From the sequence record PQ724393.1: 64,000 nucleotides of DNA; one strand, 5' to 3'. The first letter of the stretch is position 1; each line of letters opens with the position of its first letter. Positions 2,670 through 63,871 of this stretch are shown here, piece after piece. The notes under the pieces are model-generated. The model did no database searches and had not been told where the DNA came from. It saw only the letters and a list, made by a program, of their open reading frames with translations. Both the position numbers and the translations under genes were made by a program. The DNA comes from a phage.

Positions 2670-3194
2670 TTATGCGAGAACCGTCTTTAAACGCTCTTCA
2701 AATTTCTGAAGCAGAGCTTGGCGTTCAGCTCGTTGTGATTTGTACTGCTCGATACGACCTGAAGTGAGGGCGTACTGTTCGTTTACTGATTCCCGCATGA
2801 ATTCAGGAATCTCTTTACAAGCTTTGATTTCGTCAAACTTATCAATAACAGCTTGTTGTTCAGCAATCAGATTATCGAAATAAGCGATATCAGATTTAAC
2901 GTTTGCCAGGTCGGATTCAGTAGGCATTAAACGTTTGTTACGTTCAGCTTGATAAGCTTGATTGGTTTCACGACTCCAGTGAAGAGTACGTTTTTTGTTA
3001 GTGTTTTTATAGAGCTCTACAATACCAACTGAATCGATGACTGCAATCCAGTTCCAACGGCTTTTGTAAATCTCTCCTCCAGATACGGTAATCTCATTAC
3101 CACAAGCAACATCGTTAAAGAACTTGCTTTGTTTTTCAGATTTGAAATTACCGTTGTTGAAATTAATCAGTGAAAAAATATCTTTAGCGTTCAT
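2670..3194 (-). CDS. hypothetical protein (174 aa)
   Basis: ORF with GGAGG RBS; preceded by the repeated promoter-hairpin element. Confidence 0.6.
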   Translation of the reverse strand: MNAKDIFSLINFNNGNFKSEKQSKFFNDVACGNEITVSGGEIYKSRWNWIAVIDSVGIVELYKNTNKKRTLHWSRETNQAYQAERNKRLMPTESDLANVKSDIAYFDNLIAEQQAVIDKFDEIKACKEIPEFMRESVNEQYALTSGRIEQYKSQRAERQALLQKFEERLKTVLA

Positions 3195-3202
3195 GATAAC
3201 CT

Positions 3203-3249
3203 CCAGTAGTTGATAGGTCTATAGTATCATTTCTACTGGAGATGTAAAC
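3203..3249 (-). promoter_or_regulatory. repeated promoter-hairpin element (GTTTAC-N17-TACTAT with flanking inverted repeat)
   Basis: core TTGATAGGTCTATAGTATCA on plus strand; inverted repeat CCAGTAG / CTACTGG encloses it; GTAAAC at 3244-3249. Confidence 0.5.
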
Positions 3250-3251
3250 AA

Positions 3252-3593
3252 CTAATAAAAACTTTTTTCACCTGCTTGCCCACTAAACCATGCGGATTGA
3301 GTGTTCTCTTTCCGTTGGTGTTTAATACGAATAAGGTATTCGTTCCTGATGGCGCAGAGTTCATCTCTGAAGTCGACTGCCAACTTAACCTGCTTACGGT
3401 CTAGATTTATTAAGGCCTGCGTCTTCGCGGCCAAGGCCAGTCTCTTGTAGTCTCCTTCTTCACAATCGGTTTTGTAAACCTTCTCGGCGAATTGGTGTTT
3501 AAATTCATTATCATAGTCTTCAATAGACTGTTTCATGGCATTAGAGTATTTCAACTCTGCTTTTATAAGGTCATAACTAAATTGTTCGAACAT
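3252..3593 (-). CDS. hypothetical protein (113 aa)
   Basis: ORF in array. Confidence 0.5.
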   Translation of the reverse strand: MFEQFSYDLIKAELKYSNAMKQSIEDYDNEFKHQFAEKVYKTDCEEGDYKRLALAAKTQALINLDRKQVKLAVDFRDELCAIRNEYLIRIKHQRKENTQSAWFSGQAGEKSFY

Positions 3594-15349: not shown

Positions 15350-15373
15350 AACTTTTATCAAGTATCGGCTTTA

Positions 15374-59315: not shown

Positions 59316-60875
59316 ATGAAAAAGAATGCATTAGTTCAAAAATGGTCCGCTCTGCTGGAAAACGAAGCCCTTCCTGAAATCGTGGGTGCTTCTAAACAAG
59401 CTATCATCGCTAAAATTTTCGAAAACCAGGAACAAGACATCCTGACTGCTCCGGAATACCGTGATGAAAAAATCTCTGAAGCATTTGGTTCTTTCCTGAC
59501 CGAAGCTGAAATTGGTGGTGACCACGGTTATGATGCTACCAATATCGCAGCTGGCCAGACTTCTGGTGCTGTAACTCAGATTGGGCCGGCAGTAATGGGT
59601 ATGGTTCGTCGTGCTATTCCTCATCTGATTGCTTTTGATATTTGTGGTGTTCAGCCTCTGAATAACCCTACCGGCCAGGTATTTGCCCTTCGTGCAGTTT
59701 ACGGTAAAGACCCTATCGCTGCTGGCGCTAAAGAAGCTTTCCATCCGATGTATTCTCCGGACGCTATGTTCTCTGGTCAGGGTGCTGCTAAATCTTTCGA
59801 AGCACTGGCCGCAAGCAAAGTTCTGGAAGTTGGTAAAATTTATTCCCACTTCTTCGAAGCTACCGGTGCTGCACACTTCCAGGCTGTTGAAGCTGTAACC
59901 GTTGATGCTGCTGCTACCGATGCCGCTAAACTGGATGCTGCTGTTACCGCTTTGATTGAAGCTGGTAAGTTGGCTGAATTGGCTGAAGGTATGGCTACTT
60001 CTATCGCTGAACTTCAGGAAGGCTTTAACGGTTCTCAGGATAACCCATGGAACGAAATGGGCTTCCGCATCGACAAACAAGTTATCGAAGCTAAATCCCG
60101 TCAGCTGAAAGCAAGCTACTCTATCGAACTGGCACAGGACCTTCGTGCAGTACACGGTATGGATGCAGATGCTGAACTGTCCGGTATCCTTGCTACCGAA
60201 ATTATGCTCGAAATCAACCGTGAAGTTATCGATTGGATTAACTACTCTGCACAGGTTGGTAAATCTGGTATGACCAACACCGTTGGCGCTAAAGCTGGTG
60301 TGTTTGACTTCCAGGACCCGATTGATATCCGTGGTGCTCGTTGGGCCGGTGAGAGCTTTAAAGCCCTTCTGTTCCAGATTGATAAAGAAGCAGCCGAAAT
60401 CGCTCGTCAGACCGGTCGTGGTGCTGGTAACTTCATCATCGCTTCCCGTAACGTAGTTAACGTACTGGCTGCAGTTGATACTTCTGTAAGTTATGCAGCT
60501 CAAGGTCTGGGTCAGGGTTTCAACGTTGACACAACCAAAGCAGTATTTGCCGGTGTTCTTGGTGGTAAATATCGTGTTTACATCGACCAGTATGCTCGTT
60601 CCGATTACTTCACCATCGGTTATAAAGGTTCCAACGAAATGGACGCAGGTATCTACTATGCTCCGTACGTTGCACTGACTCCGCTGCGTGGTTCCGATCC
60701 GAAGAACTTCCAACCGGTAATGGGCTTCAAAACTCGTTACGGTATCGGTATTAACCCGTTCGCTGACCCAGCTGCTCAGGCGCCTACCAAACGTATTCAG
60801 AATGGTATGCCTGACATCGTTAACAGCCTCGGTCTGAATGGTTACTTCCGTCGGGTTTATGTCAAAGGAATTTGA
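59316..60875 (+). CDS. 23: major capsid protein gp23
   Basis: 519 aa; very high similarity to T4 gp23 along whole length as recalled. Confidence 0.97.
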   Translation: MKKNALVQKWSALLENEALPEIVGASKQAIIAKIFENQEQDILTAPEYRDEKISEAFGSFLTEAEIGGDHGYDATNIAAGQTSGAVTQIGPAVMGMVRRAIPHLIAFDICGVQPLNNPTGQVFALRAVYGKDPIAAGAKEAFHPMYSPDAMFSGQGAAKSFEALAASKVLEVGKIYSHFFEATGAAHFQAVEAVTVDAAATDAAKLDAAVTALIEAGKLAELAEGMATSIAELQEGFNGSQDNPWNEMGFRIDKQVIEAKSRQLKASYSIELAQDLRAVHGMDADAELSGILATEIMLEINREVIDWINYSAQVGKSGMTNTVGAKAGVFDFQDPIDIRGARWAGESFKALLFQIDKEAAEIARQTGRGAGNFIIASRNVVNVLAAVDTSVSYAAQGLGQGFNVDTTKAVFAGVLGGKYRVYIDQYARSDYFTIGYKGSNEMDAGIYYAPYVALTPLRGSDPKNFQPVMGFKTRYGIGINPFADPAAQAPTKRIQNGMPDIVNSLGLNGYFRRVYVKGI

Positions 60876-60906
60876 TAACATAAGTTATTAATTCTTAAAA
60901 TTATTT

Positions 60907-60924
60907 GGGAGACTTCGGTCTCCC
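60907..60924 (+). terminator. hairpin terminator after gene 23 (possibly bidirectional)
   Basis: GGGAGAC-TTCG-GTCTCCC followed by T-rich tract. Confidence 0.6.
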
Positions 60925-60939
60925 ATTCTTGTTTCTATA

Positions 60940-61206
60940 CTATGCAATCTTAACACGACGGTTGATGATATCACGGAAGTCAATACGATTTTCTTGGATT
61001 TTCAGCCAGTTACCAGATTTGTCTTTGGTATGGGTAGAGTATTCACCGTTCCACCAGAAGTCGGTAGCATAAGCCATGGCTTCGTATTTCTTAACTAGTG
61101 CATTCACTGCATTACCGTTAGGATTGGAACCATATTTTTCTACCAGGGCTTTGATGTCTTTATCAAGAGCGGAAAGAGTAGTACGAATAAAGTTTAACTT
61201 GTTCAT
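60940..61206 (-). CDS. hypothetical small protein (about 88 aa) between genes 23 and 24
   Basis: start at ATG 61206 with GAGGAG RBS; driven by copy of repeated promoter element; no GIY-YIG or HNH motif. Confidence 0.5.
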   Translation of the reverse strand: MNKLNFIRTTLSALDKDIKALVEKYGSNPNGNAVNALVKKYEAMAYATDFWWNGEYSTHTKDKSGNWLKIQENRIDFRDIINRRVKIA

Positions 61207-61235
61207 TTTTAATCTCCTCATGTTTTGATAGGTCT

Positions 61236-61265
61236 ATAGTAACATGTGATAACCTTGCTGTAAAC
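61236..61265 (-). promoter_or_regulatory. repeated promoter-hairpin element (GTTTAC-N18-TACTAT)
   Basis: core TTGATAGGTCTATAGTAACA, only copy in the late region. Confidence 0.5.
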
Positions 61266-61271
61266 AACTTT

Positions 61272-61279
61272 TATAAATA
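61272..61279 (+). promoter_or_regulatory. late promoter TATAAATA for gene 24
   Basis: exact match. Confidence 0.65.
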
Positions 61280-61307: not shown

Positions 61308-62591
61308 ATGGCAAAGATTAACGAATTACTGCGCGAGTCAACAACTACTTCTAGCAACTCATTGGGTCGCCCTAATCTTGTTGCTTTGACCCGTGCTACA
61401 ACCAAATTGATTTACCGTGATATTATTGCTGAACAACGTACTAGCCAGCCTATTGCTGCATTGTATGGTGTCAAATATCTTACTCCTGATAATGAATTTA
61501 GCTTCCAAACTGGTGCCGTTTATGGTGGTGAAGTTGGTTCTAAAGACCGTGAAACTATCCCGGAACTCACAGATAAGGCCCAGGCTATTGCCAAGGGTGA
61601 ATATTTCAAGTATCAGAACATAGTTTATAAGGCTCTTCAAGCAAGCCCACTCGCATCCACTAGCGCTACAGAATTGGCTGATGCCCTTCAAGAAGGTTTG
61701 GTGTCATTAACATGTCGTCTGGTTCCTGATGCGGCTCACACAGAGAAATTCGAAGCAGGTGATGTTGAAATTAGTAATGCAGTATTCCAGGTTAATAAAT
61801 GGAACGCACCTGTTAAGTCTCGTAAACTTAAGACCGCTTTGACTGTAGAACTAGCCCAAGACATGGAATCCAATGGCTTCGACGCCCCTGCATTCTTAGA
61901 AGACCTCCTGGCTACAGTAATGGCTGATGAGATTAATAAAGACGTTCTGCAGTCTCTAATAACCGTATCTAAACGCTATAAAGTTACCGGTGTATCTGAT
62001 AATGGTATCATGGATTTGACTTATGATAGCGCTCCAGAATCTGCACGTAAACTTTATGAAATTGTTTGTGAGATGAATTCTGAAATCCAGAAAACTACTT
62101 CTTATTCTGGTACGTTTGTTGTGGCTTCAAGTCGTGTAGCTGCAATGCTTGCGGGTTCAGGCTGGTTAAAACATAAACCTGAAGATAATAATTGGCTCCC
62201 AGAAACTGCCTATGGTTATTTGCTGAATGGATTACCTCTGTTCTGTGACGTTAACAGCCCATTGGATTATGTTATCGTCGGTGTTAAAGAGAACTATGGT
62301 GGTAATGAAGTCGTCGGTTCTATTTTCTACGCCCCATACACAGAAGGCCTGGATTTAGATGACCCGGAACACGTCGGTGCTTATAAGGTTATTGTTGACC
62401 CGGATTCATTACAGCCTTCTATTTCTCTGATGGTTCGTTATGCGCTGTCCGCTAACCCGTACACCGTAGCTAAAGACGATAAAGAAGCTCGTGTTATCGA
62501 TGCAACCAATATGGATTTAATGGCTGGTCAGAGTAATATGTCCTATCTGCTCGGTGTTAAACTTCCAGCAATTATTTACGAGGCTGATTAA
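61308..62591 (+). CDS. 24: head vertex protein gp24
   Basis: 427 aa; closely matches T4 gp24 as recalled. Confidence 0.95.
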   Translation: MAKINELLRESTTTSSNSLGRPNLVALTRATTKLIYRDIIAEQRTSQPIAALYGVKYLTPDNEFSFQTGAVYGGEVGSKDRETIPELTDKAQAIAKGEYFKYQNIVYKALQASPLASTSATELADALQEGLVSLTCRLVPDAAHTEKFEAGDVEISNAVFQVNKWNAPVKSRKLKTALTVELAQDMESNGFDAPAFLEDLLATVMADEINKDVLQSLITVSKRYKVTGVSDNGIMDLTYDSAPESARKLYEIVCEMNSEIQKTTSYSGTFVVASSRVAAMLAGSGWLKHKPEDNNWLPETAYGYLLNGLPLFCDVNSPLDYVIVGVKENYGGNEVVGSIFYAPYTEGLDLDDPEHVGAYKVIVDPDSLQPSISLMVRYALSANPYTVAKDDKEARVIDATNMDLMAGQSNMSYLLGVKLPAIIYEAD

Positions 62592-63871
62592 TGTCTAAGA
62601 TTATAGACCTAATTAAAGAATCCACATTGACGGCTGCCAACTCGGTTGGCCGTCCTGCTCTTCTTTCATACACCCAAGCAACTAATAAACGAATCTTTAA
62701 AGCCCTAGTTGCTGAACAAAAAACAAGCCAACCTGTTGCTGCTCTGTACGGGGTTCGTGTACTTAACCCTGATGACAAAATGACTTATCTTGGTGGCGCT
62801 ACATTTGCAGGCCAGATTGGTATGTCGGAACGTGAAAATATTCCTGAATTTACCGATTCGTCTACAGCTTATGCAGCCGGCGATATGTTCCAGTTTGAAA
62901 GTGTAGTGTTTAAAGTTCTAGAAGCATCTCCTTTCGCCGGAACCACGGAAACCGACCTTGGTGAAGTTATTTCTGAAGCAGTGGCAGCCGGGCATATTCG
63001 TATGGTATCAGATGCTGCTATTACTTCTAAATTTGAACAAGGCCATCCCGAAATTGCTGAAGCAGGCTTCCGTATTGACAAATGGCAATCTGAGGTTAAA
63101 TCACGTAAACTGAAAACTTCGTTGACAGTCGAATTAGCCCAAGACCTAGAATCAAACGGATTTAATGCTCCTAATTTCGTTGAAAATCTGCTAGGCATTC
63201 AAATGGCAGAAGAAATTAATAAGGACGTATTACAGTCATTAATTACGGTGAGTTCTCGTTTTAAAGTCCAAGGTGTTTCCGAAAAGGGTGTATTGGACCT
63301 TACTAACCCACGTTACGATAATGCCCAGGACCGTGCTCGTACATTATATTATTACATGTGTGAGATGAACTCTGCCGTCCAACGTCAAACTTCTTTCGCC
63401 GGGACTTATGCAGTAGCTAGTTCTCGTTGTGCTGCTATTCTCGCCGCTTCCGGTTGGGTTGAGAAAAAGGAAGACCAAGACGAACTGGCTTACGGTATAT
63501 TAAAAAATGGCCTGCCTCTTTATGCCGATATGAATAGTCCGTGTGATTATGTTATTGTTGGCGTAAATGCTCAGATGGGTGAAGGACAGACGGTCGCATC
63601 TTTATATTATGCGCCTTATACGGAAGGTTTGAATGTGGTTGACGAAGAAGGTGATACTTCGGTAGGTGAATTTAAGGTTATTGTTGACCCGGAAAGCTTG
63701 CAACCTACAGTAGCATTGCTTGCTCGTTATGCATTGACGGCAAACCCTTATACCGTCGCTAAGGACGATAAAGAAGCCCGCATTATTGATGGTTCTGATA
63801 TGGACAAAATGGCTAATCAAAGTCAATTGAGTTCTTATCTCGGTGTAAAATTACCACCTTTAGAAAAATAA
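62591..63871 (+). CDS. second head vertex protein, divergent gp24 paralog
   Basis: 426 aa; alignable to the first copy along its full length with shared blocks (KSRKLKT..TVELAQD, INKDVLQSLITVS, YAPYTEGL, YTVAKDDKEAR); TAATG overlap. Confidence 0.85.
   Translation: MSKIIDLIKESTLTAANSVGRPALLSYTQATNKRIFKALVAEQKTSQPVAALYGVRVLNPDDKMTYLGGATFAGQIGMSERENIPEFTDSSTAYAAGDMFQFESVVFKVLEASPFAGTTETDLGEVISEAVAAGHIRMVSDAAITSKFEQGHPEIAEAGFRIDKWQSEVKSRKLKTSLTVELAQDLESNGFNAPNFVENLLGIQMAEEINKDVLQSLITVSSRFKVQGVSEKGVLDLTNPRYDNAQDRARTLYYYMCEMNSAVQRQTSFAGTYAVASSRCAAILAASGWVEKKEDQDELAYGILKNGLPLYADMNSPCDYVIVGVNAQMGEGQTVASLYYAPYTEGLNVVDEEGDTSVGEFKVIVDPESLQPTVALLARYALTANPYTVAKDDKEARIIDGSDMDKMANQSQLSSYLGVKLPPLEK

Follow-up and report, generated by a model that had tools for sequence, protein, structure and literature searches.

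A reversed gene with an early-type promoter, ORF88, between the capsid genes 23 and 24 of a JS98-like T4-type phage

The window analysed here (64,000 nucleotides of sequence record PQ724393.1) comes from a JS98-like T4-type phage (Dhakavirus), and is 94.5% identical to IME341 and IME08 across 24 kb. From position 1 up to about 30.8 kb the genes are on the minus strand and belong to the early and middle classes. Between 30826 and 64000 every credible gene, from the baseplate genes through genes 23, 24a and 24b, lies on the plus strand with a single exception. This exception, ORF88, is found between gene 23 (59316–60875) and gene 24a (61308–62591), the latter followed by gene 24b (62591–63871); 24a and 24b encode vertex protein paralogs. 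ORF88 spans 60940–61206 on the minus strand and encodes 88 amino acids, from an ATG at 61206 to a TAG at 60942–60940, and the 800 bases around it are 97–99% identical to those of IME08, JS98 and relatives. The sequence-only reading had described an 88-aa minus-strand ORF with a strong ribosome-binding site (RBS) between genes 23 and 24. The ORF coordinates are confirmed, and a Shine-Dalgarno sequence, GAGGAG, can be read directly at 61219–61214 on the minus strand, 7 nt before the ATG. An alternative in-frame ATG at 61221, the start used in the IME08 annotation, would give a protein of 93 aa. The 88-aa start is preferred because the ATG at 61221 overlaps the GAGGAG and has no RBS of its own, and because all ORF88 homologs start with MNK or MTK.

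A promoter scan, together with alignment to repeated copies, places a promoter of the T4-early or sigma70 type at 61236–61265 on the minus strand. Its -35 is GTTTACA (61265–61259), followed by a 17-nt spacer, with TG at 61244–61243 and a -10 of TACTAT at 61241–61236. The T4 early consensus is GTTTAC(A/T)-17-TAnnAT with TG, as generally understood and as partly drawn from the repeated copies in the window. An early promoter was here defined by a -35 of GTTTAC(A/T), a 17-nt spacer, a -10 of TAnnAT with TG and an A/T-rich upstream region, and the ORF88 site has the form GTTTACA-17-TACTAT with TG. Upstream of its -35 lies an A/T-rich stretch, read from the sequence as TATTTATAAAAGTT in the ORF sense (61266–61279, minus strand), and back to back with the -35 is the late promoter of gene 24a, TATAAATA (61272–61279, plus strand). 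Transcription would start near the A at 61229, leaving a leader of about 23 nt.

The same element precedes many ORFs of the early half. With its flanks, the ORF88 promoter reads AAAAGTT-GTTTACA-N17-TACTATAGACCTATCAA and aligns with 10 other copies in the window, for which pattern scanning and alignment give the consensus AAAAGTT-GTTTACA-N16/17-(TG)n-TACTAT-AGACCTATCAA. The part comprising the -10 and the initial transcribed region, TACTATAGACCTATCAA at 61225–61241 (minus strand), is one of nine copies in the window of a 17-nt core, TAYTATRGMCCTATCAA, against 0.02 expected by chance from shuffles. All nine are on the minus strand, eight of them between 3210 and 27098, and each of the nine promoter copies precedes an RBS and a start codon. 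The ORF88 core is the only late-region copy, as the sequence-only reading had proposed, since every other credible gene from 30826 to 64000 is on the plus strand.

At its other end, ORF88 is followed by a hairpin, TGGGAGAC-TTCG-GTCTCCCA (60906–60925), which scores as terminator-like on either strand and is common to gene 23 and ORF88. The folded segment reaches -13.5 kcal/mol in the ORF88 sense (z -3.8) and -19.3 kcal/mol in the gene 23 sense (z -4.3), so that an earlier suggestion of a terminator hairpin shared with gene 23 agrees with a structure that is stable in both senses. The T-run after the hairpin is better in the gene 23 sense, while in the ORF88 sense the hairpin is followed by AAAUAAUUUU, with no clean U-run, and termination of the ORF88 transcript may therefore be incomplete or leaky. 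This anatomy is read directly from the window, as is the fact that the late half has a single copy of the promoter.

ORF88 is the same gene as JS98 orf173 (YP_001595302, 100% amino-acid identity), IME08 orf166 and VR7ORF190c, from which nothing structural distinguishes it; these, and RB69ORF188c/189c, lie at the same site between genes 23 and 24 and run in the same direction. By tblastn it is present in 238 phage records; in more than 200 phage genomes the gene already has an annotation, as a hypothetical protein. Membership of PHROG 6003 is supported by a significant full-length match (E 4.2e-50, residues 1–88 on positions 1–88 of 90). The sequence-only reading had proposed a homology search, and identification as a known protein as the result that would tell against it. 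The outcome is divided: ORF88 is known to databases in the trivial sense of being annotated as hypothetical, but PHROG 6003 is a family without a known function, and homology searches recovered this family and no functional relative. No described function or expression study was found in the literature searched for RB69ORF188c and phrog_6003, and no paralogs of ORF88 were found within the window.

The protein itself is well supported. Nei–Gojobori dN/dS ratios are 0.13 against IME08, 0.08 against VR7 and 0.27 against JS09 (dS is saturated for the distant pairs), and judging from these ratios the coding sequence is under purifying selection. An AlphaFold model built with 16 homologs has a mean pLDDT of 94.1 and a pTM of 0.80, and predicts helices at residues 3–25 and 31–48, a beta hairpin at 52–61/67–71 and a helix at 77–87. 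ORF88 is basic (pI 9.6; 9.6–9.8 in the family, with one outlier at 8.0) and has no cysteines. M1, K3, F6, G31, N32, N35 and Q71 are invariant in all classes. Neither its sequence nor its model gives evidence of a membrane segment or signal peptide. Searches for relatives of known function returned little. No Pfam family matched above its cut-off in any of 16 family members; the best candidate, DUF5380, scored 12.9 bits against a cut-off of 29 (E 0.1), was equally weak in 5 of the 16 and was rejected. Neither NCBIfam nor PADLOC held a match to ORF88, nor did the PDB by sequence or by profile, and Foldseek of the model against the PDB gave only E values above 2. BFVD returned ORF88's own family only. 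Described anti-defence and defence-related families were without a match by sequence or fold. The earlier statement that ORF88 has no nuclease motifs is upheld, there being no GIY-YIG or other Pfam match above cut-off. On these results ORF88 encodes a genuine protein, basic, of 10 kDa and of alpha/beta type, which is maintained by selection, lacks any catalytic motif and has no known relative by fold.

Dhakavirus, Gaprivervirus, Mosigvirus and metagenomic T4-like contigs all retain the order gene 23, ORF88 on the opposite strand, gene 24. Promoter and ORF88 occupy the slot between the capsid genes in JS98, in VR7 (Gaprivervirus), in two metagenomic T4-like contigs, and in JS09 and O157 typing phage 6 (Mosigvirus). 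In IME08 and 37 other records ORF88 is followed by segD, inserted before the hairpin. T4 has segD on the opposite strand and no ORF88, and Erwinia phage Vettismorki has GTTTACA-17-TATAAT before a homing endonuclease, again without ORF88. The slot is empty in T2, most Tequatrovirus and the Klebsiella T4-likes; that of T2 holds the hairpin and the late promoter only, with no GTTTACA. The cargo of the slot thus differs between lineages, and the early promoter, absent from T2 and present with differing cargo elsewhere, moves together with the cargo and does not belong to the slot as such.

T4 provides the closest comparison. As the sequence-only reading had stated, segD is found there at the same place between genes 23 and 24, and it has the same reverse orientation as ORF88. 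The T4 region likewise has the late TATAAATA back to back with an early-type -35/-10, and its gene 23 is followed by a hairpin of the same kind. Unlike T4 SegD, ORF88 lacks a GIY-YIG motif and is unrelated in sequence; the possibility that it is a relic or relative of SegD was rejected on hhalign probabilities (out of 100%) of 1.1% for T4 SegD and 0.5% for IME08 SegD. Directly upstream of T4 segD there is TTTACA-17-TATTAT with TG (NC_000866, about 107281–107253 of the record; 1282–1254, minus strand, of the extracted locus L006), a site that scores 10/12 as sigma70-type. According to a 2010 review, no segD-specific promoter had been identified in T4 (PMC2988022). In a time-resolved omics study of T4, segD was classed as an early RNA and a middle protein (PMC9697503 supplement), and by analogy the early RNA gives the strongest indirect indication at hand that the slot is expressed early. 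An early timing of ORF88 expression is suggested by the class of its promoter, by the similar site before T4 segD and by the early classification of the segD RNA. As a T4-type early promoter, the ORF88 site would act in the first minutes of infection, independently of MotA and gp55.

Phages of the IME08 type have segD as an additional gene after ORF88, unlike T4, whose segD is alone in the slot. The IME08 copy (1735–2420 of locus L001, corresponding to window position 60949/60950) is 56% identical to T4 SegD. The insertion falls precisely between the stop of ORF88 and the hairpin, with the segD ATG 4 nt past that stop, and leaves ORF88 intact. Replacement of the ORF88 C-terminus by segD, as tblastn matches covering only residues 1–72 might have indicated, was ruled out because IME08 ORF88 translates intact. 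With 38 records having the ORF88 and segD arrangement, segD is a presence/absence polymorphism within the genus. A partnership between the two genes could be read from their joint occurrence in these 38 records, from the slot that ORF88 shares with T4 segD and from the 4-nt spacing in IME08, which would allow co-transcription from the ORF88 promoter; ORF88 would then be a helper, an immunity factor, or a carrier or protector of the target, and the pair one mobile element. We regard this as very improbable. ORF88 occurs without segD in most Dhakavirus records, in all examined Gaprivervirus and Mosigvirus and in two homologs outside T4-like phages, and conversely T4 and Vettismorki have an endonuclease without ORF88. 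ORF88 and SegD have no sequence relation, and a segD that is present or absent beside a constant ORF88 looks like a separate insertion.

Loss and damage of ORF88 are found among close relatives. In the Dhakavirus dhabil (MN850621), which was isolated on K-12 MG1655, about 294 bp are missing that correspond exactly to the leader and ORF88; both promoters, early and late, are retained together with the hairpin (1200–1290 of locus L025), leaving a 'solo' early promoter that faces the hairpin. The deletion junction joins TCTATA-type short direct repeats, TCTATACTAT (60934–60943), just after the ORF88 stop, and TCTATAGTAA (61233–61242), in the -10 region. The RB69 copy (AY303349; 657–897 of locus L010) has two frameshifts and is annotated as ORF188c and ORF189c; it may be a pseudogene, or the frameshifts may be errors in the 2003 sequence. 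Truncated versions occur in other isolates.

Members of the family fall into two allele classes, type A (which includes JS98 and VR7) and type B (which includes RB69 and JS09), with identities of 48–99% within a class and 27–39% between classes. In one T4-like contig (L012; ENA ERZ27245996 k123_278436), gp23 and gp24a are 91% and 94% identical to those of the window, yet positions 3001–3273 carry a type B, RB69-type allele that is only 30% identical to ORF88, which indicates that the allele was replaced inside a conserved backbone. Against the window, VR7 has 97% identity in gp23 and 64% in ORF88, and JS09 84% and 34%, respectively. The GC content of ORF88 is 39.7%, compared with 39.9% for the window, and gives no compositional sign of recent import. 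Being absent, deleted, frameshifted or allele-replaced in close relatives, ORF88 is dispensable, accessory cargo; it is exchanged as a module, and it is independent of segD. The same observations bear on whether ORF88 could be an accessory of head morphogenesis, such as an early chaperone or regulator of gp23 or gp24, which would explain why its position between genes 23 and 24 has been retained in at least three genera and in metagenomic relatives. Such a role is quite improbable for a gene that lies on the opposite strand with an early-type promoter, that is lacking from T2, T4 and the Klebsiella T4-likes despite their closely related capsid genes, and that can be deleted (dhabil) or frameshifted (RB69). 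The contrast in identity between the ORF and the capsid genes of L012 also argues against it, as do the homologs in other phages, which are not beside capsid genes.

The cassette is of a type already known, the moron/PeSL-like ORFan unit. PeSLs were described in RB49 and phi1 as a repeated early promoter and stem-loop before orphan ORFs; PeSL-like sequences were noted in JS98, and the elements were proposed to mediate ORFan shuffling (Arbiol et al. 2010, PMC2839356). Excision as mini-circles, through recombination between flanking copies, is a further trait of PeSL cassettes, of which the short-repeat junction in dhabil would be at most an indirect sign. ORF88 resembles the PeSL arrangement in that an orphan ORF is directly preceded by an early promoter that is sigma70-like, repeated and A/T-rich upstream, and in that dhabil represents a clean loss of the ORF leaving one promoter copy. 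Several promoter copies of the early half also carry stems of 10–11 bp that pair the -35/-10 spacer with the RBS; in examples at 15360–15260, 13024–12924 and 3260–3160 (minus strand), TCTCCTGTAG and CTACAGGAGA pair the spacer with the downstream Shine-Dalgarno sequence, and the copies at 3210, 12974 and 15310 have stems of 11 bp, at -20 to -29 kcal/mol. Unlike the strongest of these (-19 to -29 kcal/mol), the ORF88 copy has a weak, interrupted stem of -10.1 kcal/mol. The upstream arm in the early-half copies precedes the probable start site, and so the stem could mask the RBS only in read-through from upstream promoters. The JS98-type element is not homologous in sequence to the RB49 PeSLs, as far as they were compared. 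A further difference is that ORF88 sits in the conserved head module, between the core genes 23 and 24, and in no hyperplastic region; the slot is variable across genera despite its core-gene flanks.

The moron concept of lambdoid phages is said to come from Hendrix and colleagues. In the terms in which it is described elsewhere (PMC2839356, Discussion), ORF88 is an autonomous unit with its own promoter and terminator, oriented against the surrounding late operon; the two genes that it separates are neighbours in T2 and dhabil. It departs from lambdoid morons in belonging to a virulent phage, to which the logic of lysogenic conversion does not apply. Its base composition, unlike that of morons, is not atypical, and its terminator is held in common with gene 23 and was not brought in.

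Relatives of ORF88 are absent from plasmids and from the one genome per bacterial species that was searched, and a search of IMG/VR returned only contigs of ~155–172 kb, some of them matching, by length and coordinates, phages already recognised in this analysis. An exhaustive profile search of 1.84 billion representative proteins gave only 10 matches. Among these P0022 and P0024, large surface-repeat (Big_2-like) proteins with many weak stretches, were judged spurious, and P0020 was set aside as the product of a chimeric contig. Two distant homologs stand, both on contigs of unrelated phages and in regions of accessory or early type. P0021 (E 1.6e-18) is encoded on a 35-kb contig in a run of small early-type ORFs that includes a T7 0.6-like one, and this contig shares only a DNA match of ~80–90 bp with 84-kb Erwinia phages. 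P0023 (E 2.2e-12) comes directly after a tail-tip gene, on the contig of a siphovirus related to 42-kb Serratia phages. Each has its own sigma70-type promoter (TTGAAT-17-TATTAT and TTGACG-17-TATATT, respectively) and a GC hairpin directly after the stop, so that promoter, gene and hairpin together form the conserved package. That the functional element might instead be DNA or RNA, with ORF88 incidental to a recombination or insulation cassette or to an early antisense or spacer transcript, we hold to be extremely improbable. The idea draws on the promoter, which belongs to a repeated PeSL-like family proposed for ORFan shuffling (PMC2839356), and on the retention of promoter and hairpin in dhabil after the loss of ORF88. 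It is at odds with the purifying selection on the coding sequence, with the confident protein model and with homologs recognisable at the protein level within unrelated flanking DNA, and no Rfam family matched in the ORF88 region.

We consider it somewhat probable, on balance, that ORF88 is a moron/PeSL-like early accessory cassette whose product interacts with the host, as an antagonist of a host factor or of a defence system. The unit consists of a promoter of the host-sigma70/T4-early type, a 23-nt leader with a strong RBS, the 88-aa ORF and the hairpin, and is lodged in reverse between the gene 24 late promoter and the gene 23 terminator. Unmodified host RNA polymerase would transcribe it in the first minutes of infection, and the divergent orientation and bidirectional hairpin would shield the unit from late transcription of genes 23 and 24, which is very strong. 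Its product would be neither a capsid component nor a nuclease; it may bind a host macromolecule and act as a conditional host-takeover or anti-defence factor. The extremely conserved flanking capsid genes could serve as homology arms that move ORF88 alleles and segD between co-infecting phages. The role in host-macromolecule binding and in counter-defence or takeover is a guess at the level of class, and no specific target was indicated by any search. It is prompted by the small size, the lack of catalytic motifs, the early promoter and the basic charge, and by fast evolution, presence/absence polymorphism and restriction to virulent phages. A bolder version, which we think possible but doubtful, is that ORF88 founds a new family of early counter-defence proteins or host-factor inhibitors with a fold that has no representative in the PDB. 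On this view genes 23 and 24, as the two most conserved genes of T4-like phages, would act as homology arms for the swapping of alleles (two classes, about 30% identical) and of the homing endonuclease between co-infecting phages, and the gap that they flank would be a 'safe harbour' favourable to recombination.

An alternative is a protein directed against other phages, in superinfection exclusion or in competition during co-infection. Imm and Sp, the known exclusion proteins of T4, are membrane proteins, and ORF88 shows no evident membrane segment or signal peptide. RB69-type phages exclude T4 in crosses (PMC2993671), but RB69 itself carries a frameshifted copy of the gene. Competition between phages would fit a gene that is dispensable, probably expressed early and present as allele classes exchanged between backbones; with these points taken together we judge it unlikely, and prefer a product that acts on the host.

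T4-like phages are in wide use, both therapeutically and as model systems, and the majority of their small early genes still await explanation. As a single insulated transcription unit with a confident model and no known homolog, ORF88 is easy to study, and natural variants are at hand in the dhabil deletion, the RB69 frameshift and the allele swaps. Should it prove to affect host range or to counter a defence, a new protein family would be added, and accessory cargo would be seen to be carried and exchanged within the structural module that is most conserved. If ORF88 has no phenotype, it would be one more orphan gene, and the practical lesson would be limited to the annotation of the slot between genes 23 and 24.

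Two observations concern the neighbouring capsid genes. The gene for the vertex protein, gene 24, is present in tandem (61308–62591 and 62591–63871, plus strand) as paralogs that are 56.5% identical, the start of the second overlapping the stop of the first; the duplication is likewise annotated in JS98, IME08 and VR7, and Mosigvirus and T4 have a single copy. An ORF of 516 aa lies antisense across the entire gene 23 (59331–60881, minus strand); it most likely results from the codon pattern of gene 23, which is highly expressed.
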